A DNA stretch of 64,000 nt from Burkholderiales bacterium (GCA_043743335.1 JAYTWR010000074.1:3413-67412); one strand, 5' to 3'. Counted from the stretch's first letter, positions 4,119-61,061 are shown. Numbers and translations are program-made. Notes: a model not told the origin generated them from the sequence alone.

Positions 4119-4244
4119 TCGGCGTGCTACTGCCCATGAAGAGGGCGGCATGACCAGTTGCTACAGTCAGCGTCAGCGGATTAGCGTAACTATTTGATTT
4201 TATTGATTTTTATTCGAATGCCTACAATCGGCAGTGCTGACGAC

Positions 4245-5171
4245 CTAGGCGCGCGGCAAATTGTACATCGCCGCGACTTCTGCGCGATTGGTGACCTTGA
4301 GCTTTTTGAAGATGCGCTGCGCGTGGTTCTTCACCGTGAAGGCGCTGATGTTGAGATGCTCTGCTATTTCGGAATTGCTCTTGCCTTGCGTCAACCACGC
4401 CAGCACCTCGAGCTCCCGCGTGCTCAGGTTATTGGGGATTTTCAGATCGGGGTCGTTGGCAGCAATTTTGGCGATTTTGAGTGCAGCGACCTTGCGAAAT
4501 GCCATGTCGACTTGAGCGACTACGGAATTAATCAGAAATGAGTGATATTCGCTTTCATGCTCGGACAGGGCCATAGATGAATTGAACGCGACATAGAGCG
4601 TTTCCTGATCATCACGTTCATTGCGCATACCAAATATCTGCACGCAGCGCATGTCCTGCATCGCAGTGTGAATCGCATAGTCGCACGGTGTTAGTTTCGC
4701 GAGATCGTCAGAGAGACCGTTCAACCGCAGGGGTTGTCTGCCATTGGCGGTGTATCGGTTGAAATACTCCTTCAGTAGCGGCTCTAGCCCGCATTTTGCG
4801 AGGAGCTCCGTACGCACGCCTGGCAAGGCAGAAACTACATCAAGCGTCAGATTTTTTTCGCGGAAATCGCCCCAAGCCGATATCAGAATTTGGTGAGGAA
4901 TAAAGTATTGGACTTTGTCCTGCAGCAGCCGATACAAGTCGTAGTGAGAATCGACATTGGATGCACTTTGGACAATTTGCATGAACCGTTCGCTTTCGCT
5001 TTCGGTTTGCTTGCTGGTTAGCTTTGGTGCGGTCGCCATGTCGCGGTGGGCAACCAGTGGCAGGACGTTGTGGGACGGCCGATTGGTGGCCCGGGCGTCG
5101 TTGCTATCGAGCATGCGCACATGAGCGCGGGCCTTGGCTGAGGAGCTTGTCGTCATTGTTATATGTGCCAT
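4245..5171 (-). CDS. epsA: LuxR-family transcriptional regulator EpsA (XrtB/PEP-CTERM-associated)
   Basis: C-terminal LuxR HTH (LSTRELEVLAWLTQGKSNSEIA..TVKNH); IPHQILISAWGDF N-domain; divergent from the eps operon. Confidence 0.85.
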   Translation of the reverse strand: MAHITMTTSSSAKARAHVRMLDSNDARATNRPSHNVLPLVAHRDMATAPKLTSKQTESESERFMQIVQSASNVDSHYDLYRLLQDKVQYFIPHQILISAWGDFREKNLTLDVVSALPGVRTELLAKCGLEPLLKEYFNRYTANGRQPLRLNGLSDDLAKLTPCDYAIHTAMQDMRCVQIFGMRNERDDQETLYVAFNSSMALSEHESEYHSFLINSVVAQVDMAFRKVAALKIAKIAANDPDLKIPNNLSTRELEVLAWLTQGKSNSEIAEHLNISAFTVKNHAQRIFKKLKVTNRAEVAAMYNLPRA

Positions 5172-5309
5172 TTTTTTTCCTAGTGCGAACCGGTAAACAG
5201 TTTGACTGGGGACTTATTCGCCAACGGCCTGCTATTTCCTCATGCGTTTCATTCTGCAACTGAATAATGCCAAACCTGTATTGCGCGTGTTGATCTTTCG
5301 GAGGCCGAA

Positions 5310-5349
5310 TGTGACATTTATCACGCTAATACTTGTGACTTTGTTCACA
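5310..5349. promoter_or_regulatory. Two tandem CRP/FNR-family (CRP-type) boxes
   Basis: TGTGA-catTta-TCACG (5310-5325) and a perfect TGTGA-ctttgt-TCACA (5334-5349). Confidence 0.6.
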
Positions 5350-5987
5350 ATTTCCGCAAACGGTCAGCAGAAGCAGCTTAGTCCCAAATTGTTGCGGTAT
5401 CGGGACGGCCATTTGGGCTGCCGCGGGCTGGATATGAATTCGTCGGTTTCGCGAGACGATTCTCGTGCAATCAACGCGTGCGTACGATGGTGTCGTGTGG
5501 TAAGCACGCAACGAATTGTGTAGCGGGGCGCGCACGGCGCGATATTTATGACAAAATTCGCCCATCGGGGAACGCCTTCGGTCGCAGACGACAGCTTTTT
5601 GCGTGCAGGCGGATTAAGTGGATTAATTGGCGTAATTATTGACTTTATTTTCGGATTTCTCCAATCGCATGTGCGACAGTTTTTCCGCTGCGCCGGAAAT
5701 CCAATTTGTCATTGAAAACCATGATAATTTGCGCAGCCAGCGGTGCTCTTTGACGTAGGTGAAACATATTTTTTCCTGTAGAATAAAGGACATAGGCTGT
5801 TTAATTAAACAAAATTCTTTGTGTGAGACACCTTTACGGTTCGCAGTCGGAGCTTCGAAGATGAAAGGGAAAGCGTTGGCTTAAAGGCCACCTAACTAGG
5901 GTAATTAATTTGGTCGAGTTTCGTATGAAAACTAGCGCAGTTGGTCGCCATGCCTGATTTTTCTGAATGGGTATTGTCGGTAACAAA

Positions 5988-6686
5988 ATGAGCATCGCGC
6001 CGAATCCTGCAGCTTTGATCACGCCGGCTGTGGCTCGAATTATTCCTTTTGCATTATTTATCGGGTTCATCGCCTTGCAATCGTTGGGGGATGCGCGCTT
6101 GCTGGCGTTTGGCGTGAACCCGCACTGGCTTTATCCCGCGAGAACGGTAGTGGTCGGCATTGCTTTGTTGGCACTTTGGCACCATTACAGCGAGTTACAT
6201 GATTTTTCAGGGATTTCTGTCAAATGGCTCGTTACGGCTATTGCGGCCGGACTGCTGGTATTTGCTTTATGGATCAACCTAGAGTTTGACTGGGCGACGG
6301 TCGGTAAAGCTTCTGCGGGATTCGACCCGACACAGCCAAATGGCGCTATCAACTGGGTGCTGGTGGCGTTTCGCTTGGCGGGATTGGCGCTGGTGGTGCC
6401 TGTAATGGAGGAGCTGTTTTGGCGTTCTTTCCTGTTGCGGTGGATCGATCAGCAGGATTTTCTGAATCATGCGCCCGGCAAGGTTACCGTTCGTGCCATA
6501 CTTATCTCGTCGCTGTTGTTCGCATCGGAGCATAGTTTGTGGTTTGCGGGTTTGCTGGCGGGATTGGTTTACGCTTGGGTGTACCTGCGTGGCGCAAACC
6601 TGTGGCTACCGACCATCAGTCACGCTGTTACCAATGGCGTGTTGGGCTGCTGGATACTCATGACTGGCCATTGGCGGTTCTGGTGA
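5988..6686 (+). CDS. CAAX prenyl protease-related (CPBP/Abi) intramembrane protease, PEP-CTERM system associated
   Basis: VPVMEELFWR, FASEH and HAVTN CPBP motifs; multiple TM segments; alternative start at 5967. Confidence 0.88.
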   Translation: MSIAPNPAALITPAVARIIPFALFIGFIALQSLGDARLLAFGVNPHWLYPARTVVVGIALLALWHHYSELHDFSGISVKWLVTAIAAGLLVFALWINLEFDWATVGKASAGFDPTQPNGAINWVLVAFRLAGLALVVPVMEELFWRSFLLRWIDQQDFLNHAPGKVTVRAILISSLLFASEHSLWFAGLLAGLVYAWVYLRGANLWLPTISHAVTNGVLGCWILMTGHWRFW

Positions 6687-10237: not shown

Positions 10238-10246
10238 GGATACCCA

Positions 10247-22906: not shown

Positions 22907-22958
22907 GCATCAGCGCAGATATACTTTTGACGTTGTTAGGAGCGGGAGTATCGCTTTG

Positions 22959-23462
22959 ATGGGAGATCCGGATTGGCAGGCCGATTTGGCGCGGTATCCC
23001 GCTCGACCGTTCCTCAAAGAGCAATCGATTTGGGCCATTGGCGTTTACCGATTCGGTCGCAGGTTAGATCGACGTCCCGCTGGAACAACCAAACGAATAC
23101 TGACCCAAGTGTATTGGCTGACCTATCGAATCGTCGAGACGCTAACAGGCATCAGCCTGCCCAAATCAGTTCAGATTGGGCCCGGATTGCGCATATGGCA
23201 TTTTGGTTGCATTTTTATTCACCCCCAAGTGAGAATGGGGGCCAACTGCACACTGCGTCAGGGCGTCACGATCGGCAATCGTTTTGAAGGTAGCTCGGTT
23301 CCGCTAATCGGCGACAACGTAGATTTCGGCGCATACGCCCAAGTGTTAGGCGACGTGACCGTTGGCAATAACTGTAAAATAGGCGCAATGTCCGTGGTGC
23401 TGGTTAATGTTCCCGAGGGGGCCACTGCGATAGGCATCCCTGCAAGAGTGATACTGAATTAG
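22959..23462 (+). CDS. CysE/WcaB-like hexapeptide-repeat O-acetyltransferase
   Basis: Left-handed beta-helix repeats, H.G.I.IH and terminal GIPAR. Confidence 0.88.
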   Translation: MGDPDWQADLARYPARPFLKEQSIWAIGVYRFGRRLDRRPAGTTKRILTQVYWLTYRIVETLTGISLPKSVQIGPGLRIWHFGCIFIHPQVRMGANCTLRQGVTIGNRFEGSSVPLIGDNVDFGAYAQVLGDVTVGNNCKIGAMSVVLVNVPEGATAIGIPARVILN

Positions 23463-23526
23463 TTTGTAACTACTTGATTTATTTGACTTATTTTATATTT
23501 TCCCCATGCCCTTTCCGGAGATAACA

Positions 23527-30670: not shown

Positions 30671-30715
30671 GCGAGAATTATTGTAACTAATTGATTTTAT
30701 TGATAAATTTATAAA

Positions 30716-35504: not shown

Positions 35505-36683
35505 GTGGTCAGCACATTAGAATTGCGCCTTACCCAAACACCAAGCAAGTCGCACACCGATTCGAGGCAGGCTATAGTGGATCAGAAGTTTGTTGATTTT
35601 TCACGAAACATTCATTGTCTCTTAGGGTTACCGTTTGACGTGATCGATATGGCGGGCGCGGTGCGACAGGTGCGCGCCGCCACTGCGGCACGCCAATCGT
35701 GCTTTCTGACGACGCCGAATCTGAATTTCGCCATCGGGTGCCTCACGGATGAGGGTTTTCGAAACTCCGTGATCAACAGTGACCTAAGCGTTGCCGACGG
35801 TATGCCGCTGGTTTGGATAGCCCGCATACTGCACGTTCCCATTCGTGAGCGGGTTGCCGGCTCCACGTTGTTCGAGCGCCTGCGCACGGCGTCGGTGCCG
35901 CCGATATCGGTGTATTTTTTTGGCGGACCGGATGGCGTGGCCGAGTTGGCCTGTCGGCAACTGAATCAGGAAAAGCGCGGTATGACTTGCGCCGGATTTG
36001 AGTCGCCGGGTTTTGGTTCGTTAGACGATATCAGCAGTGAGGCTGTCATCGAACGCATCAACGCCAGCAAGGCCGATTTTTTGGTGGTCGCACTCGGTGC
36101 GAAGAAGGGGCAGGCGTGGATTGAACGGAACCGCGCGCGCATCAACGTGCCGGTGATCAGTCATCTTGGTGCCGTGGTGAACTTCGTCGCCGGTAGCGTG
36201 AATCGCGCGCCGCTGTGGATGCAACGCATCGGGCTGGAATGGCTGTGGCGCATCAAAGAAGAGCCGGCCCTATGGCGCCGTTACGGCGCGGACGGCATGG
36301 CGCTGTGCGCACTGCTGTTCGCCAAGGTGCTACCTTATGCTTGGTATGTTCATAAAAATATCAATAAAATCAATTACTTAGATAATTTTTCGATTAAGGC
36401 GACTATAAGCGACACACAAGTCAGCCTATGCTTGCGTGGGGCGTGGACTGGGGCGAATATCGCCCCGCTGCGTGCGGCTTTTACCGACGCCGCACAAGCC
36501 GGTAAGGATGTTTGCCTTGAACTCGCCGATGTCACGTACGTGGATAGTGCCTTTGTCGGACAACTGATGTTGCTCTACGGCCACCAAAAACAGCAGCGAC
36601 GAAAGTTGATCCTGCACGCCGTGTCAACGCCGGTACGGCGTGTGCTGTCGTATAGCTGCGCGGATTATCTCTGCGCGCCGTAG
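35505..36683 (+). CDS. WecG/TagA/CpsF (GT26) glycosyltransferase fused to a C-terminal STAS domain
   Basis: TPN, ADGMPLVW, RVAG and RAP.WMQ..GLEW motifs; C-terminal LELADVTYVDSAFVGQL STAS motif; start may be GTG 35577. Confidence 0.88.
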   Translation: MVSTLELRLTQTPSKSHTDSRQAIVDQKFVDFSRNIHCLLGLPFDVIDMAGAVRQVRAATAARQSCFLTTPNLNFAIGCLTDEGFRNSVINSDLSVADGMPLVWIARILHVPIRERVAGSTLFERLRTASVPPISVYFFGGPDGVAELACRQLNQEKRGMTCAGFESPGFGSLDDISSEAVIERINASKADFLVVALGAKKGQAWIERNRARINVPVISHLGAVVNFVAGSVNRAPLWMQRIGLEWLWRIKEEPALWRRYGADGMALCALLFAKVLPYAWYVHKNINKINYLDNFSIKATISDTQVSLCLRGAWTGANIAPLRAAFTDAAQAGKDVCLELADVTYVDSAFVGQLMLLYGHQKQQRRKLILHAVSTPVRRVLSYSCADYLCAP

Positions 36684-42044: not shown

Positions 42045-42941
42045 ATGACACAAACAATGCAAACAATGCAAATGACGCAGACAGCACAGACAGCACAGAC
42101 AGCACAGACGGGACAAATTGCACAAATAGCCGCAAGCCCGCTGCGGCGTATTTTAACGGTATTCGCCCTGCTCTCCGCGGGCTGGTTGCTCGCTGCCTGT
42201 GGTGCGTTTGGCGATAAAACCGACGAAACCAAGGGCTGGAGCGCGCAAAAGCTCTACGCCGAGGCGCGCGCAGCGCTGGATTCCCGCTCGTATGAAAAGG
42301 CCGTGGGTTATTACCAAAAGCTCGAAGGCCGTTATCCCTATGGCCGTTTTGCGCAACAGGCGCAACTGGAAATGGCCTACGCCTACTACAAAGACAAAGA
42401 TCCCGCTGGCGCGATTACCGCCGCCGAACGCTTTATCAAGAATTACCCGAATCATCCGAATGTCGATTATCTGTACTACCTCAAGGGCGTGGCGAATTTC
42501 AACGACGACTTGGGCATCGTGGGATTCGTCAGCGGGCAAGACATGAGCGAGCGCGATTCCAAGGCCTCACGCGATGCCTTTGATGCGTTCAAGGAGTTGG
42601 CCGCCAAGTTTCCCGACAGCAAATACCGGCCCGACGCCATTGAGCGCATGAACTATCTGGTGAATACACTGGCCGCCAACGAGGTGCATGTCGCGCGCTA
42701 CTATATGGCACGTGGCGCTTATGTGGCCGCTGCCAACCGCGCGCAATTTGCGCTGAAAACCTATCCGCAGGCACCGGCCAACGAAGAAGGGCTGCTGTTG
42801 CTGGTCAAGGCGTATGACGCCCTGGGCATGAAAGACTTGCGCGCCGACGCCGAGCGCGTGATGCAAAAAAACTTCCCCGACAGCAAATACCTGCGCGGCG
42901 ACGGGCGCAAGAGCGGCTCGTGGTGGCAAATCTGGAATTAA
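42045..42941 (+). CDS. bamD: Outer-membrane protein assembly factor BamD
   Basis: Lipobox LAAC; TPR helices, YPYG, HPNVDY and AAANRA motifs; rluD-divergent synteny; exact start uncertain within the repeat. Confidence 0.93.
   Translation: MTQTMQTMQMTQTAQTAQTAQTGQIAQIAASPLRRILTVFALLSAGWLLAACGAFGDKTDETKGWSAQKLYAEARAALDSRSYEKAVGYYQKLEGRYPYGRFAQQAQLEMAYAYYKDKDPAGAITAAERFIKNYPNHPNVDYLYYLKGVANFNDDLGIVGFVSGQDMSERDSKASRDAFDAFKELAAKFPDSKYRPDAIERMNYLVNTLAANEVHVARYYMARGAYVAAANRAQFALKTYPQAPANEEGLLLLVKAYDALGMKDLRADAERVMQKNFPDSKYLRGDGRKSGSWWQIWN
42051..42131 (+). repeat. Degenerate 9-bp tandem array (9 units) at the 5' end of bamD
   Basis: CAAACAATG x2, CAAATGACG, CAGACAGCA x3, CAGACGGGA, CAAATTGCA, CAAATAGCC. 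Confidence 0.85.
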
Positions 42942-42949
42942 TAAAAACT

Positions 42950-42970
42950 CAATAAAATCAATTAGTTACG
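42950..42970 (+). repeat. Representative copy of a dispersed ~20-bp IHF-consensus-containing motif
   Basis: CAATAAAATCAATTAGTTACG; close copies at 36362, 47606, 49836, 54657 (+) and 4185, 23466, 30683, 51657, 61027 (-). Confidence 0.8.
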
Positions 42971-43172
42971 TCACATCGTAACCGGCATCTTCCACGGCTG
43001 TTGTGAGTTGCGCCACATCGGTCACCGCCGCGTCGTATTGCACGTGGGCCTGCCCCGGCGTTAACGTCACTTGTGCCTCGGCTACGCCCGGCGTCGCCTT
43101 TAACACTCGGGTGACGCTGCCGACGCAGCCCATGCAGGTCATGCCGCTGATGTTCATTAATACGGTTTCCAT
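42966..43172 (-). CDS. copZ: Copper chaperone (HMA domain)
   Basis: GMTCMGC; terminal AGY; downstream of the P1B ATPase. Confidence 0.88.
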   Translation of the reverse strand: METVLMNISGMTCMGCVGSVTRVLKATPGVAEAQVTLTPGQAHVQYDAAVTDVAQLTTAVEDAGYDVT

Positions 43173-43186
43173 GCTGATGCTCCTTG

Positions 43187-45376
43187 TTAAGTTGAGGGCA
43201 ATGGCCGCCAGCGCCGCAGCAACAGCGCGTTGCTGACCACCGACACCGACGACAGCGCCATGGCAGCACCGGCAATCACCGGGTTGAGCAGCCCAAAAGC
43301 GGCCAGCGGTATTCCCAGTGCGTTATAGAAAAACGCAAAAAAGAGATTCTGCCGGATTTTAGTGAGCGTGGCGCGTGACAGGCGTATGGCGTCGGCCACA
43401 CGCATCAGGTCGTTGTGCATCAGCGTGATGTCAGCGGCCTGAATGGCCACATCGGCGCCAGCGCCAATGGCAAAACTCACATCCGCAGCGGCCAAGGCGG
43501 GCGCATCATTGACGCCATCCCCGACCATGCCGACGGTCTGCCCGCTGGTCTGCAATGCCTGCACCTGCGCGGCCTTGTCTTGCGGCAACAAATTAGCCTG
43601 CCACTGCGCAATGCCAGCGTCGCGCGCGATGGCGGCAGCCGTAAGCGCGTTGTCGCCGGTTAGCATTATGGGCGTGACTTTCAGCGTCAGCAGCTCACTT
43701 AGGGCGCGCGCCGTGGTGGGGCGCAGCTTGTCGGCAATGGCGATAACGCCAAGCACACGCCCCGCCAGTGCCACGAAAATCACCGTTTTGCCGGATTGCT
43801 GCAGTGGCGCGATGCTTTGTTCTCGCAGCGCCAAGCCCAGTTCGGCGGCGTAGGCAGGCGAACCGAGAACGGCGGGCACGCCATCGAGCATGCCGTGCAA
43901 GCCTTTGCCAGAAATGGAGCGAAATTCAAATATCTCTTTAAAATCAACTAGTTGTGACTTGGCATGCACGATGACCGCCTGCGCCAGCGGATGTTTCGAG
44001 CCATGCGCCAGCGCGGCGGCGATAGCGAGCAGTGCGCTAGCCGTGGTGCCTGCGGCGGGCACAACATCGGTCACTACCGGCTTGCCTTCGGTGAGCGTGC
44101 CGGTTTTATCGACCACCAGCGTGGTGAGCTTACCGGCGGTTTCCAGCGCCGCTGCGTTGCGGATCAAAATGCCGGAGCGCGCACCGATGCCGCTGCCCAC
44201 CATGATGGCCGTGGGCGTAGCCAAGCCCAACGCGCACGGGCACGCGATCACCAACACCGCCACCGCGTTAATCAGGCCGGCCGTGTAGTCGCCGCCGATC
44301 AAGCCCCAGCCCAGCAACGTCGCCACCGCGATCACCATAACGATCGGGACGAATACGCCGGCGATGACATCTGCCAAGCGCTGTATGGGTGCTTTGGAGC
44401 CTTGCGCGTCTTCAACCAGCCGCACGATGGCGGCCAGCGCCGTTTGCTCGCCGACACCGGTAGCGTGACAGCGCAACAGGCCTTGCTGATTTATCGTGCC
44501 GGCGTACACGCGTGCGCCAGCGCGCTTAGCCGAGGGCAGACTTTCGCCGGTAAGCAGCGCTTCATCCACGCTGGATTCGCCGTCGAGCACATCACCATCG
44601 ACAGGAACGCTGTCGCCGGGCCGCACCACAAAAATATCGCCTGCACGCAGCGCCGCCAGCGCAATCTCCACGCGCTGCCCGTCGCGTTCCACCGTTGCGG
44701 TTTTGGGTTGCAGTTGCAGCAGCGACTCAATCGCCGACGAGGCCTTGGCGCGCGCGCGCATTTCCAGCAGCTTGCCCAGCAGCACCAAAGTGATGACCGT
44801 GGCGCTGGCCTCAAAATACCCGTGCAGCGGCAGACCCAGCGCCATTACAGCCACGCTGTAGCCATAGGCCATAGACGTGCCCAACGCCACCAGCACATCC
44901 ATATTCGCCGCACCGCCGCGCAATGCGTGCCAGGCGCTCACATAAAACCGCCCGCCGATCCAAAACTGCACCGGTGTCGCCAACGCAAACTGCAGCCACA
45001 GCGGCAGCCAGTCGTGCTTGCCAGCGAGCATCGCCGGCATTTGCAGTAGAAACGGCAGCGTGAGCATCGCGGCCATCACAAAGCGGCGAAATTCGGCCTG
45101 ATACGCCTCGGCATGCAGGCGCTTTTCATCGTCACGCGACTGCGCGGTTTTTACCTGCGCGCCGTAACCGGCTTTTTCGACGGCCTTGATCAGCGCATCG
45201 GGCGGGGTGGCGGGCGAGTAGGCCACGCGCGCGGTTTCGCTGGCGAAATTTACCGTCGCGGTAACCCCCGGCAAGCGGTTCAATACCTTTTCAATGCGCG
45301 CGGCGCAGGCGGCGCAGGTCATGCCGGTGACGGCAAGGTCTACGCGGGGCAGGGTGGCGGTGGGGCCGGTTTGCAT
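43187..45376 (-). CDS. copA: Cu(I)-translocating P1B-type ATPase
   Basis: GMTCAAC, TGES, CPC, DKTGT, HP, GDGVND, YN and MALSS motifs. Confidence 0.93.
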   Translation of the reverse strand: MQTGPTATLPRVDLAVTGMTCAACAARIEKVLNRLPGVTATVNFASETARVAYSPATPPDALIKAVEKAGYGAQVKTAQSRDDEKRLHAEAYQAEFRRFVMAAMLTLPFLLQMPAMLAGKHDWLPLWLQFALATPVQFWIGGRFYVSAWHALRGGAANMDVLVALGTSMAYGYSVAVMALGLPLHGYFEASATVITLVLLGKLLEMRARAKASSAIESLLQLQPKTATVERDGQRVEIALAALRAGDIFVVRPGDSVPVDGDVLDGESSVDEALLTGESLPSAKRAGARVYAGTINQQGLLRCHATGVGEQTALAAIVRLVEDAQGSKAPIQRLADVIAGVFVPIVMVIAVATLLGWGLIGGDYTAGLINAVAVLVIACPCALGLATPTAIMVGSGIGARSGILIRNAAALETAGKLTTLVVDKTGTLTEGKPVVTDVVPAAGTTASALLAIAAALAHGSKHPLAQAVIVHAKSQLVDFKEIFEFRSISGKGLHGMLDGVPAVLGSPAYAAELGLALREQSIAPLQQSGKTVIFVALAGRVLGVIAIADKLRPTTARALSELLTLKVTPIMLTGDNALTAAAIARDAGIAQWQANLLPQDKAAQVQALQTSGQTVGMVGDGVNDAPALAAADVSFAIGAGADVAIQAADITLMHNDLMRVADAIRLSRATLTKIRQNLFFAFFYNALGIPLAAFGLLNPVIAGAAMALSSVSVVSNALLLRRWRPLPST

Positions 45377-47505: not shown

Positions 47506-47768
47506 GGCGTTGCGGTGGCTTGCGGGCAGCCTAGGCGGTGATGGCGGGCGAGCCTCACGCACGGCCCGGGACTCGCCGGTTTAGGCGGTAATTTAAAAAA
47601 TCTTTTAAAATCAATTAGTTACAAAATTTTGCTGGGCAGCGGCATGCCATGGGTTTCCTTCAACATCATTCGGACGCGGCCATCAACAATACACGACTTC
47701 GCGCTAGAATCCCTCGTCTATCCCGATGTTCATTTGGTCTCTATTCAGCCTCTATGAAAAATCAAAAG

Positions 47769-47872: not shown

Positions 47873-47958
47873 GGGTTGTTATTTCACAGAGGCTGAATAG
47901 AGACTTTATTTGTTTATTAGTTCATACCCACGTTAACTTGAGATCACTGGAGGCTTGC

Positions 47959-48849
47959 ATGGATAACAACACTCGACCGGTTTTCAATCGCGCTGCCGAA
48001 GACATCGGCAATTCCGTCTGGCTGGAGCATACCAATACCACGGTGCCGGATCAGATTCCTGCTGTGCTGTTTTACCTCACGGGCATGGGCCTCACGCGCG
48101 ACCCGTACATCATGACTGGGCTGGAGAATATGTGGGTCAACATTGGTCGGAGCCAAATTCACATGCCAGCGCGCGCGGCGCAGGTATTGCGCGGACACAC
48201 TGGCATTGTGCAGCCTGATCGTGCGGCGTTGCTCAAGCGCTTGGAGTATGTAACGCCCAAGCTAGCCGGCACTAAATTTGCCTATAAAGATTGCGGCGAA
48301 TATGTCGAAACCACTTGCCCGTGGGGTAACAAATTTAAGGTGTATGAGCCAGACCCGTCGCGCTTTGGCGGCGTGCAACTGGGCATCCCGTATGTCGAAT
48401 TCGATGTGCCGGTGGGCGTGGCGGACGGTATTGCGCGTTTTTACAACGCGGCGATTAAGGCGCCAGCGAAAGTGGTGGATGACAAAGCCGGTCGTGCGGC
48501 GCATGTGTTGGTGGGCCACAATCAGTATTTGATTTTCCGTGAGACCAGCAACCCGATCCCGGAATACGACGGCCATCATCTGCAAATCTACATTGCTGAC
48601 TTCTCCGGCCCGCACGATTGGCTGCAAGCCAAAGGCCTGATCACGGAAGAAAGCGATCAATACCAATATCGCTTCAAGGATATTGTCGATCCCGATTCCG
48701 GTAAATTCCTCTACACCATTGAACACGAGGTGCGCAGCATTACCCATCCGCTGTATGCGCGCCCGCTGGTGAACCGCAATCCGGTGCAAACCAATCGCAA
48801 CTACCGGCCCGGCTACGATGCGGGTCAGTGGGCCACGCCGCACGGGTAG
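47959..48849 (+). CDS. Conserved glyoxalase-like (VOC fold) protein
   Basis: GGAGG RBS; LEHTN..FY..G and GHHLQIY metal-ligand-like motifs. Confidence 0.65.
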   Translation: MDNNTRPVFNRAAEDIGNSVWLEHTNTTVPDQIPAVLFYLTGMGLTRDPYIMTGLENMWVNIGRSQIHMPARAAQVLRGHTGIVQPDRAALLKRLEYVTPKLAGTKFAYKDCGEYVETTCPWGNKFKVYEPDPSRFGGVQLGIPYVEFDVPVGVADGIARFYNAAIKAPAKVVDDKAGRAAHVLVGHNQYLIFRETSNPIPEYDGHHLQIYIADFSGPHDWLQAKGLITEESDQYQYRFKDIVDPDSGKFLYTIEHEVRSITHPLYARPLVNRNPVQTNRNYRPGYDAGQWATPHG

Positions 48850-49825
48850 CGCAATCCATCCCGCAACAGCAGCAACGATATTCTGCGGCGCTTTGTGGTG
48901 GTTGATGGCAGGTGCCAGCGCTCAGGCGCAAGCGTGGCCTACGAAGCCCGTACGCCTGATTGTGCCGATGGCCGCTGGCGGTGGCAGTGATAGCGTAGCG
49001 CGTCTCTTGGCGGGCAAGTTGAGCGAAGCGCTCGGCCAGCAATTCGTGGTGGACAATCGCGGCGGGGGCGGGGGCTTAATCGGCATTGGCATGGCGGTGA
49101 AATCGCCGCCGGATGGCTACACCCTGATGCTGATTTCCGGCAGCGTGCCCGCCACCATCGCCGCGCACAAACCGCCGTATGATGCCATCGGCGGCTTGAG
49201 CGGCGTGATCCGTGTCGGCTACTCGCCGCTATTGCTGGTAGTGCATCCGTCGATACCGGTCAACACCGTAAAGGCGTTCATCGCGTTCGTGCGCGCGAAG
49301 CCGGGGCAACTGTCGTTTGTGGTGCCGGGCGTGGGCAGTCTCACGCACTTGGCGATGGCGCATTTGATGGCGATCACCCAGTTGCGCATGCTGCATGTGC
49401 CGTACAAAAGCACCGGGCTCGGTATGACCGATTTGATCGCCGGCCAAACGCAGGTAATGATGACTGGCATGCTGCCGGTGTTGCCCTATGTGCAGGCAGG
49501 GCGCTTGCGCGCGATCGCGGTGAGCACTGGGCAGCGCTGGCCGGCGCAGCCGGAGATTCCCGCTGTGGCGGAAACGCTGCCGGGCTTTGATGTGGAATCG
49601 TGGTTCGCCGTGGTTGCGCCCAAGGGCACGCCTGCGGCGGTGATCGCGCGAGTGAATAGCGAATCCAACAAGCTGCTGCAGGATGCCGCCTTGCGCAAAT
49701 CGCTGGACGCGCAAGGCATGGCGGCAGCGGGCGGCACAGCCGATGATGTCGACAAGCGTATGCGCACTGAGGTTGAGCGTTGGTCGAAAATCATTCGCGA
49801 CGCCAATATACGCATTGACGAATAA
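48818..49825 (+). CDS. Bug/TctC solute-binding protein
   Basis: WPTKPVRLIVP..GG.SD, DGYTL and HVPYK motifs; start uncertain. Confidence 0.92.
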   Translation: MRVSGPRRTGSAIHPATAATIFCGALWWLMAGASAQAQAWPTKPVRLIVPMAAGGGSDSVARLLAGKLSEALGQQFVVDNRGGGGGLIGIGMAVKSPPDGYTLMLISGSVPATIAAHKPPYDAIGGLSGVIRVGYSPLLLVVHPSIPVNTVKAFIAFVRAKPGQLSFVVPGVGSLTHLAMAHLMAITQLRMLHVPYKSTGLGMTDLIAGQTQVMMTGMLPVLPYVQAGRLRAIAVSTGQRWPAQPEIPAVAETLPGFDVESWFAVVAPKGTPAAVIARVNSESNKLLQDAALRKSLDAQGMAAAGGTADDVDKRMRTEVERWSKIIRDANIRIDE

Positions 49826-49972
49826 ACAAAAAAATCAATAAAATCAATTAGTTACGTTTTATCTGTCGATTAGAAATCAGACCGGGAGGCGGGCATGTGG
49901 GCGGCAAAGCAGTTGGTAATAGGCGCGTCGTTTGCGGCAATGGCCGCGACGGCAGGCGCGCAAACAGGTAAC

Positions 49973-50302
49973 TCAATCCACAATAAACAGCGTCGCGCCG
50001 ATGGCCGTGAACGAGCGGTGTGCGTCGGCGTCATCGGCTACCTGATAGCTCATACCGGGCTTCAAGGTGTGGGTGCGGCCATCTTTGAGTTCGGTGGTGA
50101 GCTCGCCGGCCATGCAAAGCAGGAAATGCCCTTTGTCACACCAATGATCGGCAAGGTAGCCGGGCGTGTAGTCGACCATGCGCACACGCACGTCGCCGAA
50201 TTGCTGCGTGCGCCAGAAGGCTTTGCCGGTTGCGCCCGGATATTCTGTGCGCTCGATTTTTGACCAGTCGGTGGTGCCAAACGGTATGTTATTGATTTTC
50301 AT
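49973..50302 (-). CDS. DHCW-motif cupin-fold protein
   Basis: YLADHWCDKGH; terminal LFIVD. Confidence 0.88.
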   Translation of the reverse strand: MKINNIPFGTTDWSKIERTEYPGATGKAFWRTQQFGDVRVRMVDYTPGYLADHWCDKGHFLLCMAGELTTELKDGRTHTLKPGMSYQVADDADAHRSFTAIGATLFIVD

Positions 50303-50347
50303 GGGAATTTTTACTGTTATTGCCGGGAAAGTCCCATTCTACCCGCT

Positions 50348-51524: not shown

Positions 51525-51883
51525 GGTGTTCTCCGGTTTGCGGCTACGGCGGTTCATTGCGTCAAATAGGCCAAGATTGCGGTTTACGGCTGAATCCAAT
51601 AACGCATGATGATAGGGGTTCGGATGACACGCGGCGCAGGAAACTTGTTACAAAATGTAACTAATTGATTTTAAAGGATAATTCAATCAACAATCTGCCG
51701 TGTTTTAAGGCCTGAAACAGGTGTTTTCGCGCCGCACTGCCGACTTTCAAAAGCGCTAACTAGCCTGCCTGAAAACGTTCAATAAAACAATAGCTTGTCA
51801 GAGAGCGCCAAATCATTGCGGCAGCACGCTTGATTTGGACGCCGCGCACGTGACACAGTTCAACCCGAAACTTTGGAGAAGCC

Positions 51884-53650
51884 ATGAATTTGCCGCAAAC
51901 CGGACCGCCCGAAACCAATCTCATTGTGCACGACGCGCCGGTCGCCAGCCGCCCCAGCGAAACTTTCTGGGGCAGCGACCCCGTGGCGCTGATGCTGCGC
52001 GAACTCGGCGTGCCGTATATCGCTCTGGTGCCTGGCTCTAGCTATCGGGGCCTGCACGATAGCATCGTCAATCTGCTGGGCAACCGCGCGCCGCAAATGG
52101 TGTTGTGCGTACACGAAGAAACGGCGGTGGCGATTTCGCACGGCTATGCCAAAGTCACCGACAAAATGATGGCGAGCGGCCTGCACGCCAACATTGGCCT
52201 GATGCGCGCAACCATGGCGATATACAACGCCTGGTGTGATCGTGCGCCGGTGCTGATTTTCGGTGCCACCGGCCCGTGGGATGCCACACAGCGCCGCCCG
52301 TGGATCGATTGGATCCACACCAGCAGCGATCAAGGCGGCCTCATTCGCAACTTCACCAAGTGGGACAACCAGCCGGGCTCGCCTGCCGCTGCGGTCGAGG
52401 CCATCATGCGCGCCTCGCAAATCGCGCAGACCACGCCCAAAGGGCCGGTGTATATCAATCTCGAAGTGGCGATGCAGGAAACCCAACTCGGCCCGCTGCC
52501 AGCGTTGCGCGACCCGGCGCGTCACGCGCCGCCGCAAGCGCCGCAGCCTTCAGCCGCGTTGCTACAGGCGGCGGCGCAACTGTTGTCGAACGCCAAACGC
52601 CCGGTGATTCTCGCCGGACGTTGTTCGCGCAGTGAAGCTGGCTGGAAAGCGCGCATCGCACTCGCCGAAAAACTCAATGCGCCGGTGTGTACCAACATCA
52701 AGTTGGCAGCCGCGTTTCCGACCGATCACCCGCTGCACGCCGCAGCGCCGGGCGCGTATCTCACCGATGAAGCGCGTGCCATGGTGCGCGAGGCCGATGT
52801 GGTGTTGTCGCTGGATTACCTCGATCTTGCGGGTACGTTGAAGCAAGCCTTTGGCGACAAGCCCGTGAGCGCCAAGGTGATACAGGTATCGTGCGACGCG
52901 CACAGTCATCGCGGCGGCGGTGCAGATCACTTTGGTTTGCCGCCGATGGATATTTATTTGATGTGCGAAACCGATGCCGCAGTACCGCTGCTGCTGGATG
53001 CCGTCAGCGCGCGCACCGCACCTGCCCACGTGCCTGCCGCGCCAGCCTTGCCCGCTGCGCCGAACGCGGTGTCGCTGCGCGGCGTGGGTTTGGCGCTGGA
53101 ACAGGCCACGCGCGGCGTGGCGGTGTGCTACACCCGCTTTCCGCTGGGCTGGAACGGCGCGTATACGCATTTCAGGCACCCGCTGGATTACATTGGCCAC
53201 GATGGCGGTGCGGGCGTCGGCTCCGGGCCGGGCATGACGGTCGGTGCCGGGCTGGCGTTGAAAGGCAGCGGGCGTGTGCCCATCGCGCTGCTCGGCGATG
53301 GTGATTTTCTGATGGGCAACACCGCCGTGTGGACCGCCGCGCATTATCAGATTCCGTGCCTGATGATCGTGTGCAATAACCGCTCGTTCTACAACGACGA
53401 GCGCCACCAAGGCCGTATGGCCGCCAATCGCGGCCGTCCCGAAGAAAACCGCTGGATCGGCCAGCGCATTGATAATCCGCCTGTAGACATCGCCGCCATG
53501 GCGCGCTCACAAGGGGCGCTGGGCATAGGCCCGGTGGAAAAACCGGAAGACGTGCTGCCTGCCATTCAACAGGGCATTACGGCTGTGCGCGCCGGTACAC
53601 CGTGCGTGATCGATATGCGCGTGCTGCCGGGGTATGATACGCGAGCTTAA
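51884..53650 (+). CDS. Thiamine diphosphate-dependent enzyme (acetolactate synthase/decarboxylase family)
   Basis: PGSS, HEE..A...HGY and GDGD..NN TPP motifs. Confidence 0.92.
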   Translation: MNLPQTGPPETNLIVHDAPVASRPSETFWGSDPVALMLRELGVPYIALVPGSSYRGLHDSIVNLLGNRAPQMVLCVHEETAVAISHGYAKVTDKMMASGLHANIGLMRATMAIYNAWCDRAPVLIFGATGPWDATQRRPWIDWIHTSSDQGGLIRNFTKWDNQPGSPAAAVEAIMRASQIAQTTPKGPVYINLEVAMQETQLGPLPALRDPARHAPPQAPQPSAALLQAAAQLLSNAKRPVILAGRCSRSEAGWKARIALAEKLNAPVCTNIKLAAAFPTDHPLHAAAPGAYLTDEARAMVREADVVLSLDYLDLAGTLKQAFGDKPVSAKVIQVSCDAHSHRGGGADHFGLPPMDIYLMCETDAAVPLLLDAVSARTAPAHVPAAPALPAAPNAVSLRGVGLALEQATRGVAVCYTRFPLGWNGAYTHFRHPLDYIGHDGGAGVGSGPGMTVGAGLALKGSGRVPIALLGDGDFLMGNTAVWTAAHYQIPCLMIVCNNRSFYNDERHQGRMAANRGRPEENRWIGQRIDNPPVDIAAMARSQGALGIGPVEKPEDVLPAIQQGITAVRAGTPCVIDMRVLPGYDTRA

Positions 53651-53668
53651 AATCTGAGACTTAAAAAA

Positions 53669-54640
53669 ATGCAAATAAAACAAATACTTACGATTGCCAT
53701 CTCCACCCTGTCCAGTGCGTTCATCCCCATGGCGGCAGCGCAAAACTATCCCGTGAAGCCGATTCGGCTGGTGGTGGGTTTTCCTGCGGGCGGCCCGGCG
53801 GACATTATCGCGCGCACCACGGGGCAAAAGCTGTCTGAGCTGATTGGCCAGCCGGTCGTGATCGACAATCGCGGCGGCGCGAGCGGCATGATCGCAGCGG
53901 AAAACGTGGCGAAATCGTCGCCCGATGGCTACACCACGCACCTTGCCGGCGTGAGCGTGATGACCACCAACCCGGTGCTGTACAAAAAAGTGCCGTATGC
54001 GCTGAGTGATTTCGCGCTGGTGACGCTGGCGGTGAAAGTGCCCGAAGCGCTGGTGGTGCATCCCGCACTGCCGGTGAAAACGACCAAGGAATTCATCGCG
54101 CTGGCCAAGGCGCGTCCGGGCGAATTGAATTACGGCTCGGCGGGCGCGGGCGGCGTACCGCATCTGGCGGCGGAGTTGTTCAACACCGCGGCAGGCGTCA
54201 AGGCCAATCACATTCCGTACAAGGGTGCCGCACCCGCTGTGGCCGACATGCTGGGCGGCCATACGCAATACGGCTTTTGGGATACGCCCATCCTCGTGCC
54301 GCATGTGGGCAGCGGCAAGCTGCGCGCGTTGTTTATCGCCACCGCCAACCGCTGGCAGGGTTTCGCTAACGTGCCGACCAGCGCAGAGGTGGGCCTGCCG
54401 TCAGTCATCATCGACAATTGGTATTGCGTTGTGGTGCCGGCGGCGACACCCAAAAACATCGTGGCGCAATTGCAGGGCGCGTTTGCCAAGGCGCTGCAAT
54501 CGCCGGAGGTGCGTGATCGTTTGGGCGCGCAAGGTGTGGTGACAGTCGGTTCAAGCACGGAGGAGATGGTGACGCATCTGAAAGCGGAAACCGAAAAATG
54601 GGTGCGCGTGGCGAAATCGACGGGGCTGACGCTGGATTAG
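53669..54640 (+). CDS. Bug/TctC solute-binding protein
   Basis: YPVKPIRLVVGFPAGGPAD; DGYT; HIPYKG. Confidence 0.95.
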   Translation: MQIKQILTIAISTLSSAFIPMAAAQNYPVKPIRLVVGFPAGGPADIIARTTGQKLSELIGQPVVIDNRGGASGMIAAENVAKSSPDGYTTHLAGVSVMTTNPVLYKKVPYALSDFALVTLAVKVPEALVVHPALPVKTTKEFIALAKARPGELNYGSAGAGGVPHLAAELFNTAAGVKANHIPYKGAAPAVADMLGGHTQYGFWDTPILVPHVGSGKLRALFIATANRWQGFANVPTSAEVGLPSVIIDNWYCVVVPAATPKNIVAQLQGAFAKALQSPEVRDRLGAQGVVTVGSSTEEMVTHLKAETEKWVRVAKSTGLTLD

Positions 54641-54689
54641 CGCTGTATTAAATATTCAATTAAATCAATTAGTTACCGGAGTAATTCAG

Positions 54690-55970
54690 ATGAGGAACGT
54701 GTCGAAGTGGGTGATGTTGCTGGTGACGCTAGTCTTGGGCGCCTGCGCGAATCTACCTTCCGGTGGAGACCGCGCGAGCAGTCCTGAAAGTGTGGGTTTC
54801 TCTTCAGAGCGGCTGGCGAAGCTGACTGCGCGCATGCAGGAGGGCGTGGCAAAAGGCGAATACCCCGGTGCCGTGCTGATGATTGGGCGTCAGGGTAAGG
54901 TCGCCTACACGCAAACCTTCGGTGTGCTGAATCCGGAGACCGGCGTGGCCATGCGCGAGGACGCGATATTTCGTATTGCCTCGATGACCAAGCCGTTTGC
55001 CTCGCTGGCGATCATGATGCTGTCGGAAGAAGGCAAGCTCTCCATCGCGGATCGTGCCGATAAGTATTTGCCGGAACTCAAAGATATGAAAGTCGCGGTG
55101 TTCAAGCCGCCGGTGATGAACTTGGAGCCGCAACGAAACCCGATGACGGTGCAGGATCTGCTGCGGCATACCTCGGGATTACCCTCAGGCGAAGCCGATT
55201 CTTCCAATCCGGTGAAACGCCTGTACGCCGAAGCCAAAATCGGCAATCGTGGCTTTACCAACGAGCAATACATAGCCGCGCTGGCGAAAATGCCGCTGCT
55301 ATTTCAGCCGGGCACAACCTGGGAGTACGGCGCTTCGGTGGATGTGCTGGGCGTGATCGTCGAACGCGTGAGCGGTTTGCGCCTGGACAAATTTATCGCT
55401 GAGCGCATTACCGGTCCGTTGAAGCTGCACGATACCGGGTTTGAAGCGCCCGCAGCGCATGCTAATCGTGGCGCGCGTCCGCAGCGCGAAGGCCCAAAAA
55501 ATGTGCTGCCGAATATCGCGCTGGTAACCGACAACCAGACCTTCAAAGCTGGCGGTGGCGGCATGGTTTCCACGGCGGCGGATTACGCGCGTTTTTCCCA
55601 GTTTTTGCTCAATGGCGGCGAGCTGGACGGTGTGCGGCTGGTATCGCCCAAAACCATCGAGCTAATGACCAGTAATCAACTGCCGCCGGGGACGCGAATG
55701 GGGCCGGACATGCGGCGGTTTGAAGCGCTGGAACCATCGGCCAAGATGGGGCAGGGCTTCGGATTGGGCTTTGCGGTGCGCACCGACGCGGGCCGCAATC
55801 CGCTGCCAGGGTCGGTGGGGGATTATTACTGGGGCGGCGCGCAGGGCACTTATTTCTGGATCGATCCGAAGGAACAGCTCTACGTGGTGTTCATGATGCA
55901 GTCGCCGCAAGCACGATTGTCGTACCGCTTCTTGTTGCGGCAGATGGTGTATCAGGCGCTGGTGAAATGA
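54690..55970 (+). CDS. Serine hydrolase, class C beta-lactamase/esterase family lipoprotein
   Basis: Lipobox LGAC; SMTK; LLRHTSG; WEY; WGG. Confidence 0.92.
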   Translation: MRNVSKWVMLLVTLVLGACANLPSGGDRASSPESVGFSSERLAKLTARMQEGVAKGEYPGAVLMIGRQGKVAYTQTFGVLNPETGVAMREDAIFRIASMTKPFASLAIMMLSEEGKLSIADRADKYLPELKDMKVAVFKPPVMNLEPQRNPMTVQDLLRHTSGLPSGEADSSNPVKRLYAEAKIGNRGFTNEQYIAALAKMPLLFQPGTTWEYGASVDVLGVIVERVSGLRLDKFIAERITGPLKLHDTGFEAPAAHANRGARPQREGPKNVLPNIALVTDNQTFKAGGGGMVSTAADYARFSQFLLNGGELDGVRLVSPKTIELMTSNQLPPGTRMGPDMRRFEALEPSAKMGQGFGLGFAVRTDAGRNPLPGSVGDYYWGGAQGTYFWIDPKEQLYVVFMMQSPQARLSYRFLLRQMVYQALVK

Positions 55971-58815: not shown

Positions 58816-58846
58816 AGAATCATCGCTAATCGGCGTAAGCGTAGGC

Positions 58847-59200: not shown

Positions 59201-59299
59201 GCCGACTTGAGCATAGCGACCGTGCTCTTGCGCGGCTATCCTGGCTGCGCTACTATGGCTTACTTTTGTCTTACCAAATATTTCATCGAGGGCTCGGAC

Positions 59300-59560
59300 A
59301 TGGAAACCACCAAGCTATCCAGCAAAGGGCAGGTGATTTTGCCGGCCGCCTTACGCGCAGCGAAGGAGTGGCACGCCGGGGTGGAGTTCGCGGTGGAAGC
59401 CACCGCGGATGGGGTGCTGCTGCGGCCCTTTAAACCCGGCGCGGCTACCACGCTCGACGAGGTCGTTGGGTGCGCCGGTTACACCGGCAAGGCGCACAGT
59501 GTCGCGGACATGGATGCGGCGATTAGCGCTGAAATAAAGTCACGCCATGCACGCGGTTGA
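59300..59560 (+). CDS. AbrB/MazE-type antitoxin (VapB)
   Basis: METTKLSSKGQVILP; overlaps the downstream PIN toxin gene. Confidence 0.9.
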   Translation: METTKLSSKGQVILPAALRAAKEWHAGVEFAVEATADGVLLRPFKPGAATTLDEVVGCAGYTGKAHSVADMDAAISAEIKSRHARG

Positions 59561-59936
59561 CACCAATGTGCTGGTGCGTTTGCTCACCGGCGACGATGCG
59601 GAGCAAACGCGCCGCGCTGCGGCGCTGTTCAAAAAAGACGCCATTTTTATCGCTAAAACGGTGCTGCTGGAAACGGAGTGGGTATTGCGGCGGCTTTATG
59701 GACTGGAGCGTGACGCGGTGGTAGGGGCATTGCGCAAAGTGTCGGGCTTGCCCAATGTGGAAATTGAACATCCGTTGGCGGTAACGCGTGCGTTGCAGTG
59801 GTGCGAGGCGGGGATGGATTTTGCCGACGCGCTGCATTTGGCGTCGAGCAGGACAGGGGCAAGATTTGCCACGTTTGACGCGGGCCTTAAAAAGACCGCG
59901 CCGAGGGAGATCAAGGCGGTGGTGGTGTTGCTTTAG
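59547..59936 (+). CDS. vapC: PIN-domain toxin VapC
   Basis: VDTNVLVR; E..WVL; DFADALH; TFD. Confidence 0.9.
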   Translation: MHAVDTNVLVRLLTGDDAEQTRRAAALFKKDAIFIAKTVLLETEWVLRRLYGLERDAVVGALRKVSGLPNVEIEHPLAVTRALQWCEAGMDFADALHLASSRTGARFATFDAGLKKTAPREIKAVVVLL

Positions 59937-60007
59937 GGCGCGCCCCGCTGACCATAGCTTGTGGCGTCCCGTAGCGTCCGCGCTTTGGCTTGGTTGACGG
60001 ATTAAGG

Positions 60008-61018
60008 CTATCGAATCCGCACTGTTGTCGCGGAAGCTGCCGATTCGAGTATTGCCTCCAGCGCCGTCACGTTGTGTTCTTCATCACCGCCCGCCACGGC
60101 TAGCGGGCGTTTTTCGCGCACGGCATCAGCAAAGTTTTCGAGTTCGGCGCGCTCGGTGCTGGTGTCGGGGAAGCTGACGGTTTGCGGCTGCGGGTGCAGG
60201 TAGGGGTTGGCGGGGTCGAAGAAGCAGGTGCGCAGGTGCCAGGTGGTTAGGTGTTGCACGTCGCCCACTTCGGCCCAGCCGTGCGTGCCACACACCTGCA
60301 AGCGCCAGCTTTCGGCGGTGGCGATGACGGTGCCGAGATAGGCGGTGGCACCGCTCCTGAATTTAAATAACATGGAGGTGGTGTCGTCGGTGCCGTAGTC
60401 GAGTGCGCGGCGGCTGCTTTGCGCATGCACGGTGTCAATTTTGCCGGCGAGGTAGAGCATGGCGTCTACCACGTGCACGCCGCGCCCGGTCATGCCACCG
60501 CCGGGGCCTTCTTGAGGGTTTTGCCGCCAGTGGTCTTGGGTGACGCGATAGACGCTGGGGCCGTTGAAGTGGCCTTCCATGTGCAGCAGTTTGCCGAGAC
60601 GGCCGCTGTCGATGAGGCGTTTGATTTCTTGTAGTGCGGGTTGAAAGCGCCAGTTGTAGCCGACGCTGAGCGTGACGTTGGCTTCGGCGCAGGCGCGTAA
60701 CGCGGCCTTGGCGGATTCGGTGGTGAGGGTGAACGGTTTTTCGGTGAACACCGGTTTGCCGGCCTTGGCGCAGGCGATGATTTGCTCGGCGTGTGCCGTG
60801 TGCGGCGTGGCGAGGATGATGGCTTCGACGGTGGGATCGGCGAGCGCTTTTGCGAGGCTATCGACCAGCGGAAATCCCTTCGCCGCGGCGTACTCGCGTG
60901 CGTTTTCGGGGTGGCGTAACACGCCCATCACCACGCGTATTTTGTCGCTTTTACCTTGGATGTGATTAACAAGGTTTTGTCCCCAGCGGCCGAGGCCGAC
61001 GATGGCTGCATTTAGCAT
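60008..61018 (-). CDS. Gfo/Idh/MocA oxidoreductase
   Basis: VGLGRWG; ATPH; EKP; GYNWRF. Confidence 0.92.
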   Translation of the reverse strand: MLNAAIVGLGRWGQNLVNHIQGKSDKIRVVMGVLRHPENAREYAAAKGFPLVDSLAKALADPTVEAIILATPHTAHAEQIIACAKAGKPVFTEKPFTLTTESAKAALRACAEANVTLSVGYNWRFQPALQEIKRLIDSGRLGKLLHMEGHFNGPSVYRVTQDHWRQNPQEGPGGGMTGRGVHVVDAMLYLAGKIDTVHAQSSRRALDYGTDDTTSMLFKFRSGATAYLGTVIATAESWRLQVCGTHGWAEVGDVQHLTTWHLRTCFFDPANPYLHPQPQTVSFPDTSTERAELENFADAVREKRPLAVAGGDEEHNVTALEAILESAASATTVRIR

Positions 61019-61061
61019 TGTTTTCCTAACTAATTGATTTTATTGAATATTTTAATAGGCG

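Follow-up and report, generated by a model that had tools for sequence, protein, structure and literature searches.

Sites for integration host factor (IHF) are asymmetric, extend over about 30-35 bp and can lie between an enhancer and a sigma-54-type promoter, and in these respects they are the closest described relatives of the element reported here. This element is an AT-rich motif dispersed over a window of 64,000 nt (GCA_043743335.1, JAYTWR010000074.1, positions 3413-67412; "the window" denotes this whole stretch) from an uncultured Burkholderiales bacterium, whose lineage is betaproteobacterial and known from metagenome bins. Beside the recombination core of lambda attP stands the stretch aaaaaa-gcattgctt-atcaa-tttg-ttg, which with A6, 9 bp, ATCAA, 4 bp and TTR has the spacing of the element throughout and which we take to be the H′ site of the IHF-DNA crystal structure. 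Canonical IHF sites are individually degenerate, whereas the sites in the genome of the window (termed G000) share about 30 conserved positions, including the spacer and the four bases in front of TTR (N4). The IHF consensus WATCAANNNNTTR is quoted in passages of PMC8942017 and PMC9452768, and the abstract of the latter gives 272 predicted consensus matches for the entire genome of Dickeya zeae, compared with 1,207 (about 1,500 by a matrix) in G000. We propose, with a probability of roughly 0.7, that the motif represents a selected genome-wide family of IHF sites.

Two further groups of dispersed sequences invite comparison. The RIP/RIB (BIME-type) elements of E. coli and the Correia elements of Neisseria are dispersed intergenic repeats containing an IHF site. 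Like the G000 element they are intergenic, IHF-site-bearing and present in many copies, and roles in nucleoid structure have been proposed for them. In contrast, they are palindromic or inverted-repeat units which carry the IHF site as a passenger, whereas the G000 element consists of the IHF-type site alone, without flanking palindromes. RIP elements also occur in about 10-fold fewer copies. That small mobile repeats can carry an IHF site is stated in a passage of PMC2229807. The DNA uptake sequences (DUS) of the Neisseriaceae and the uptake signal sequences (USS) of the Pasteurellaceae resemble the G000 element in being restricted to certain lineages, in reaching hundreds to thousands of copies, in forming dialects, in lacking a strand bias and in their even spacing. 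However, they are 10-12-mers of ordinary composition, whereas the G000 element is AT-rich, 30 bp long and sparser, and combines the geometry of an IHF site with a constant placement at promoters. DUS and USS are frequent in coding regions or as inverted terminator pairs, with a density near one per kb. None of this applies to the G000 element, which is very rarely coding, occurs about once per 3.4 kb, is found twice in only 10 of 665 occupied gaps and never forms inverted pairs.

Within the window, the 20-mer was found ten times with up to three mismatches (4186-, 23466-, 30683-, 36362+, 42950+, 47603+, 49836+, 51657-, 54657+ and 61026-) and not once in any of 100 dinucleotide-preserving shuffles. 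The number of about ten close copies given in a preliminary description of the window is thus borne out, while three of its coordinates (4185, 47606 and 61027) were off by 1-3 nt. All ten copies fit WATCAANNNNTTR, in agreement with the early assignment of the core to the IHF consensus. The originally assumed length of about 20 bp is too short. An alignment with flanks and a sequence logo of 793 G000 copies reveal conservation from about -18 to +22 around a 14-mer core, giving a full element of about 30 bp. The logo consists of an A6 tract (positions -13 to -8, 67-88% A), a 9-bp spacer reading t-T-C-A-A-T-A-A-A, ATCAA, TTAG as N4, TTA and finally C or T. The A6 tract, spacer and N4 confirm that conservation reaches beyond the IHF core. 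No conserved positions were found in the 793-copy logo outside -18 to +22, and the A/T richness is gone by both limits. The element is asymmetric and non-palindromic in this logo. As single strands, six copies fold no better than shuffled sequences (z between -1.8 and +1.6), and an Rfam scan of the window gave no family match for the motif, its sole hit being a tRNA at 747-820.

A 36-nt matrix trained on the G000 sites themselves, with a site threshold of at least 18 bits, recovered all ten copies at 41-52.5 bits and added three sites (43925-43960, 50279-50314 and 53661-53696). The resulting 13 sites compare with none in 20 shuffles of the window in 100-bp blocks. Four weaker copies listed earlier are below this threshold: those near 826, 45465 and 51780 score 12.3, 9.6 and 6.3 bits, and near 35399 (-14.7 bits) nothing is present. 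The predicted sites are given below with coordinates, strand, mismatches to the 20-mer, score and context (ORF, open reading frame; genes on the plus or minus strand are marked + or -).

4181..4216, minus strand: IHF-type site, T-type (AAATCAA), N4 = ATAG, 1 mismatch, 45.0 bits; convergent gap between an SDR gene (3204-3986 +) and an epsA-like regulator gene (4245-5171 -)
23461..23496, minus strand: IHF-type site, N4 = GTAG, 3 mismatches, 41.0 bits; gap between ORF 22956-23462 (+) and ORF 23506-25809 (+)
30678..30713, minus strand: IHF-type site, exact 20-mer (0 mismatches), N4 = TTAG, 51.6 bits; 45-nt gap between an EpsE-like glycosyltransferase gene (29465-30670 +) and ORF 30716-31627 (+)
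36351..36386, plus strand: IHF-type site, N4 = TTAC, 2 mismatches, 49.5 bits; in the 3′ tail of the mechanically called ORF 35505-36683, past its glycosyltransferase family match, which stops at residue 272 of 392
42939..42974, plus strand: IHF-type site, exact 20-mer, 49.9 bits; convergent gap between a BamD-domain ORF (ending at 42941) and copZ (42966-43172 -)
43925..43960, plus strand: weaker site with TTG for TTA, 33.5 bits; a rare in-gene copy, inside the copA frame (43187-45376 -; CopA family match over residues 12-725)
47592..47627, plus strand: IHF-type site, N4 = TTAG, 3 mismatches, all in the 5′ part, 52.4 bits; divergent gap between ORF 47050-47562 (-) and ORF 47803-48849 (+)
49825..49860, plus strand: IHF-type site, exact 20-mer, 52.5 bits; convergent gap between ORF 48818-49825 (+) and a cupin gene (49973-50302 -)
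50279..50314, minus strand: weak site, 26.0 bits; at the 5′ end of the cupin gene call
51652..51687, minus strand: IHF-type site, N4 = TTAG, 2 mismatches, 47.8 bits; divergent gap upstream of a thiamine-pyrophosphate (TPP) enzyme gene (51884-53650 +)
53661..53696, plus strand: IHF-type site, A-type (AAAACAA), N4 = ATAC, 39.6 bits; between the TPP enzyme gene and the next gene
54646..54681, plus strand: IHF-type site, 1 mismatch, 43.4 bits; fills the 49-nt gap between genes 53669-54640 (+) and 54690-55970 (+)
61021..61056, minus strand: IHF-type site, 1 mismatch, 51.9 bits; fills the 43-nt gap between genes 61062-62078 (-) and 60008-61018 (-)

Several copies are in close contact with the adjoining genes. 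Sequence, reading frame and the CopZ family match agree that the copZ stop codon (42966-42968) is provided by the motif, whose TTA is here read on the minus strand, as had been noticed before. The same holds for two copies directly in front of ribosome-binding sites: the copy at 54657 ends 2 nt 5′ of GGAG and 13 nt 5′ of ATG, and the one at 61026 ends 0 nt 5′ of AGGA and 8 nt 5′ of ATG. For the gene that follows the site at 53661-53696, the true start must be located downstream of the start called at 53669.

The G000 assembly comprises 5.16 Mb in 210 contigs with 58.8% GC. In this genome the 1,207 matches to WATCAANNNNTTR are opposed by 109 for the reversed pattern, and the matrix detects 1,500 matches scoring 18 bits or more (987 reach 35 bits), compared with none after a 100-bp block shuffle of the genome. 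Exact copies number 369 for the 14-mer core AAATCAATTAGTTA and 63 for the 20-mer; allowing one mismatch raises the former to 793, and allowing three raises the latter to 655. These counts uphold the view of a genome-wide element instead of a single regulon; neither background-level numbers nor a lack of conservation outside the core was found. Genes were called by a crude caller of our own, which combines longest reading frames with a codon-usage score and yields a coding fraction of 88%; the figures for gap occupancy and spacing given below hinge on these calls. Intergenic enrichment is pronounced, with 654 of the 793 copies located in gaps, 30 at contig edges and 109 inside gene calls, and about half of the latter are within 60 nt of an over-extended start.

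No preference for orientation or gap class was apparent. With the motif set to plus, the 654 gap copies are flanked by two plus genes in 217 cases, by two minus genes in 202, by convergent genes in 133 and by divergent genes in 102. The looser pattern AAAWCAANNNNTTA occupies 928 of 4,578 gaps, about one fifth, and 19-23% of each class (plus-plus 332/1,600, minus-minus 289/1,509, convergent 146/761, divergent 161/708); among co-directional gaps of 30-59 bp, 30-34% are occupied. This lack of preference, together with the lack of hairpins, excludes a promoter, a terminator or a role at the RNA level. Of the pairs of neighbouring sites, 9.5% are closer than 1.5 kb, compared with 21.4 +/- 1.5% for random distinct gaps, and the coefficient of variation of the spacing is 0.78 as against 0.908 +/- 0.033, so that the sites are spread more evenly than random gaps. 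Relative to local GC skew, 406 copies point one way and 356 the other; no strand bias exists, and a replication-strand signal of the Chi or KOPS type was rejected on these numbers. A DnaA-box scan for oriC gave at most three boxes per 500 bp, the best candidate being located between an xseA-like and an exbB-like gene.

Two core variants, [A/T]CAA, coexist in G000, and the four bases between the core and TTA have TA at their centre. N4 in the 862 T-type sites (AAATCAANNNNTTA) is TTAG in 369, TTAC in 126, ATAG in 64 and ATAC in 38; in the 330 A-type sites it is TTAG in 71, TTAC in 43, ATAC in 39 and ATAG in 27. The linkage between core variant and N4 is weak (TTAG in 43% of T-type versus 22% of A-type sites). 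Clean subfamilies were rejected, as variants mix at each position.

For comparison with relatives, one representative per species was used, many of them metagenome bins; the genus of G000 (g1) is represented by 21 genomes including G000. The exact core of G000, found 369 times there, occurs 0-28 times in each of the 20 other species, and the exact TTAG form is peculiar to the species of G000. Nevertheless, hundreds of sites are present in every g1 species but G014, each species with its own mixture of T- and A-type. The T-type pattern counts 862 in G000, 749 in G011, 476 in G006 and 17-279 in the remaining species. The A-type pattern AAAACAANNNNTTA (AAAACAA) counts 301-787 in 18 of the 20 other species, the exceptions being G011 (40), which is nearly pure T-type, and G014 (46, compared with a control of 32). 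Reversed-pattern controls gave 0-18 matches in the 19 other species and 32 in G014. N4 is TTAG in G000 and ATAC in G011, in G125 of genus g22 and in most others; the form in G011 reads AAATCAA-ATAC-TTA, with the same upstream part as in G000.

The positions of the sites are conserved as well. A gap was taken as orthologous if both flanking genes were present in a fetched locus, and four other window sites lacked such loci. Among orthologous gaps of sister species, 15 of 16 contain a site that reaches 18 bits and has kept its orientation: six of seven after the BamD-domain gene (42939..42974), all five upstream of the TPP enzyme gene (51652..51687), both at 53679 (53661..53696; G001 and G013; position 3341 of locus L114) and both at 61039 (61021..61056). 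Genes in these loci have 67-86% DNA identity, and occupation of 15 of 16 gaps despite this divergence argues that the sites are selected and not drifting. At one and the same orthologous site N4 reads ATAC, ATGG, GTAC, TAAG or TTAG depending on the species. The predicted sites are old and fixed in position, and each species has retuned them. Divergence between the species is too great for indel boundaries at these gaps to be clean. A set of PilT-based loci (L001-L080) placed the organism taxonomically in broad terms only, and in the first 30 of them nothing resembling the full element was found.

As a separate observation, gene content at motif-bearing gaps differs between species in the region corresponding to 53669-55970 of the window (loci L112, L114 and L121): the beta-lactamase-fold gene 54690-55970 is absent in G001, and gene 53669-54640 is absent in G002 and G012. 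The sites may sit at indel breakpoints.

A survey of the order covered 401 genomes (including the unpublished G049) spanning 60 families and 176 genera, all with a completeness of 90% or higher, and a genome was counted as enriched with at least 140 matches and at least five times the control. Only 12 genomes are enriched, from three genera in two families. Counts and controls are as follows.

Genus g1: G000 1193/17; G003 941/19; G011 789/7
Genus g22, same family as g1: G125 387/2; G168 261/6; G205 251/9; G275 236/3; G369 168/1; G399 370/4
Genus g12, another family: G031 143/24; G090 158/20; G137 223/13

The extended consensus aAAAAtAT-cAATAAAA-[T/A]CAA-aTAc-TTA-y is common to G000, G011, G125 and G031 (about 30 sites sampled from each of the last three). 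A consensus held in common by two families fits the optimum of a conserved protein and not a private mobile element. Apart from these genera, an unrelated genome (G244:C1:1038613-1039620) contains AAAACAAAGC[CT]TTA every ~250 bp in a tandem array which inflates its pattern count.

The distribution of HU differs between enriched and other genomes. All 21 g1 genomes encode exactly IhfA and IhfB, with one subunit missed in two bins and an extra IhfB-like paralog in G014. No HU ortholog was found in these 21 genomes, where the best match to the HU of a sister genus (34-41% identity) is an IHF subunit; in 18 of the 20 non-g1 genomes of the first sample, HU is present with at least 63% identity. Across the order, HU was detected in 379 of 401 genomes (E <=1e-18). 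The 22 genomes in which it was not found include 11 of the 12 enriched ones and 11 of the other 389, among the latter G024, G044, G071, G183, G197, G201, G209, G220 and G234. Some of these absences may be assembly gaps. The extra gene of G014, the sole g1 species without expansion, is a third, diverged IhfB-like paralog at G014:C113:578-844 (L155).

The order of enhancer, bend and sigma-54 promoter is the classic setting of IHF. Non-coding matches to TGGCAY-N5-TTGC were taken as predicted sigma-54-type promoters in G000, giving a strict set of 12; a relaxed set comprised 17 promoter-like sites. In the strict set the motif stands within 200 bp upstream in eight cases and within 100 bp in seven, and never downstream. 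In the relaxed set eight promoters have an upstream motif, with distances from the motif centre to TGGCA of 23, 24, 24, 25, 37, 45, 86 and 123 bp, six of which are in the range of 23-45 bp. Reversed promoter controls gave three sites and one site, and the sole motif among them stands at the single site of the relaxed control, downstream of it. At four of these predicted promoters TGCACC...GGTGCA-like repeats were seen by eye farther upstream. The weight of this evidence lies in the fixed distance and not in the enrichment.

Both IHF subunits of G000 are readily recognized (IhfA: NF001401, 160 bits, cut-off 111; IhfB: NF001222, 157 bits, cut-off 115), and IhfA aligns without gaps to residues 1-93 of chain 1ihf_A. 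At residue 56 of IhfA, all 20 g1 genomes compared have I, L, M, V or Q, and the 19 others of the first sample, namely the 18 with HU and the HU-less G024 (E), have D or E. In g12 it is I or V in all three genomes (L165, L274 and L275; V in G031), and in the non-enriched HU-less genomes G071 (L273) and G044 (L276) it is K and Q, respectively. The acidic residue, located at the base of the IhfA arm, has thus given way to I, L, M, V, Q or K in four of the six HU-less genera. As a cause of the motif it was rejected, the residue going loosely with HU loss and not with the motif. Within g1, the motif-rich species are distinguished by K42 of IhfA and by D-R in place of E-K in IhfB, but as derived states common to a single clade these changes have no value as proof.

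The identical geometry to the lambda site, the positions at sigma-54-type promoters and the consensus in two families together favour the IHF option among the three that had been offered at the outset (IHF site family, uptake-like signal, scar of a mobile or recombination system). In such a family, the IhfA/IhfB heterodimer would bind each predicted site with high affinity and would wrap and sharply bend the DNA there. Selection would retain about 1,200-1,500 sites as architectural points, at most one per gap and in either orientation. Some of them would act as bends between an enhancer and a sigma-54 promoter, and most as general nucleoid-organising or domain-boundary points. IHF would be the sole protein of its family in a lineage without a detectable HU gene, and the loss of HU may have made the expansion of sites useful. 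A more far-reaching idea, which we regard as tentative and on balance doubtful, is that IHF now serves as the principal architectural protein of the chromosome in a few HU-less genera, with a programmed array of about 1,500 near-optimal sites that are conserved in position, avoid neighbours closer than 1.5 kb and have their spacer bases retuned per species, the dialect co-evolving with the protein or with DNA mechanics.

A number of observations weigh against the interpretation as IHF sites or against its link to HU. The whole case for IHF binding is built from sequence. IHF occurs throughout the order, but 389 of the 401 genomes lack the expansion, so that IHF alone is insufficient as an explanation. 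Most g1 species prefer AAAACAA, which breaks the T of WATCAA and accounts for 330 of 1,192 tabulated sites in G000. N4 and the 9-bp spacer are conserved although they are free in the textbook consensus, N4 shifts from species to species, and no IHF residue change was found that tracks the N4 dialect or the TTAG of G000. The predicted loss of the acidic residue 56 of IhfA failed in g22, where six of six enriched genomes keep D. The enrichment at promoters is modest (58% versus a gap baseline of 20-37%) and comes from a small sample. Furthermore, G090 is enriched yet has an HU match, G014, G024, G071 and G044 have none and are not enriched, and the HU association comprises only two or three independent lineages. 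The conservation of N4 and spacer, the shift from ATAC to TTAG, the preference for AAAACAA and the exceptions G014 and G024 keep two other explanations alive, namely the site of a different protein and an uptake signal.

According to the first of these, which we consider unlikely, the motif is read by another DNA-binding protein limited to certain lineages, such as a nucleoid protein that took the place of HU, and its likeness to IHF sites is coincidental or partial. An expansion limited to three genera while IHF is found everywhere would be understandable in this case, as would the conserved and species-shifting N4 and spacer, which are not known as base contacts of IHF, and the departure of the A-type core from WATCAA; HU-less lineages may also need a substitute. 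On the other hand, the analysis turned up no candidate for such a protein, IHF is matched in bipartite geometry, in asymmetry and in an extent of about 35 bp, the sites stand where IHF is expected at sigma-54-type promoters, and the same consensus in g1 and g12, members of different families, is better explained by a conserved reader than by a private one. The last point also argues against the receptor code of a single lineage, as assumed if the motif were a DNA uptake signal. There, a competence receptor would prefer motif-bearing DNA, and biased uptake with recombination would spread and homogenise the copies and thereby give rise to dialects; the notion of dialects comes from PMC3630211. 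Over-representation in few lineages, species dialects at orthologous positions, near-equal strand use (406 versus 356), spacing more even than random and the presence in G000 of two copies of ComEC, of ComEA and of a gene for an ATPase of the PilT/PilU family all agree with it. However, competence genes are widespread in the order and have no discriminating value, the density of about one per 3.4 kb is several-fold below that of DUS and USS, the copies stand singly and hardly ever in coding sequence, and neither the anatomy of an IHF site down to the spacing of the A-tract nor a fixed placement 23-45 bp upstream of sigma-54-type promoters would be expected of an uptake tag. We regard an uptake signal as quite improbable.

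The least probable explanation in our estimate is a selfish or mobile repeat, or a recombination scar, copied from master elements or homogenised by gene conversion without a function for the cell. It would account for the hundreds to more than 1,000 copies with species-specific majority variants, for the weak linkage between core type and N4 in G000 and for sites at breakpoints of gene content between species, such as the one at 54657. Yet terminal inverted repeats, hairpins and information beyond -18 to +22 are all missing, the variants mix by position without clean subfamilies, and the limit of one copy per gap with a depletion of close neighbours is the opposite of clustering. An unselected 30-mer would have decayed at 67-86% identity, whereas equally oriented sites persist in 15 of 16 orthologous gaps. 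The early suggestion of a mobile scar therefore finds little support, while that of an IHF site family fares best.

Some additional observations concern the surroundings of the sites. A GTTAC-N5-GTAAC palindrome (51672-51690), which overlaps the 3′ end of the site at 51652..51687, is retained in seven sister species (loci L114, L115, L116, L119, L120, L122 and L124) and probably functions as an operator for a local regulator, placed on top of the IHF-type site. An exopolysaccharide cluster extends from about 4200 to 36700 and is in part of low GC content (~50% at 4-25 kb); its members include an XrtB/PEP-CTERM-associated EpsA regulator, EpsE-, EpsC- and EpsA-like enzymes and a PgaB-like deacetylase. 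The low-GC stretch at ~5-25 kb has a single site (23461..23496), as would be expected if that DNA had been acquired recently. The tRNA gene at 747-820 (Rfam, 59.4 bits) is overlapped by the mechanical ORF 779-1993, and the 12.3-bit sequence near 826 is located just 3′ of it. The two ComEC/Rec2 genes of G000 are both full-length (C39:529-2382, 366 bits; C11:14112-15974, 365 bits) and could reflect a duplication or mixed bins.

No account of a comparable site family, or of a connection with the loss of HU, was found in the open-access articles searched. As a rule, IHF sites are scarce, degenerate and difficult to predict. More than 1,000 near-identical, position-conserved sites in one lineage would, if true, be a natural experiment on chromosome organisation by a bending protein and on the loss of HU. 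Species dialects at bases which IHF is thought not to contact would offer a handle on indirect readout. In addition, the motif can aid annotation, since it marks true intergenic DNA and corrects over-extended gene starts such as the one called at 53669.

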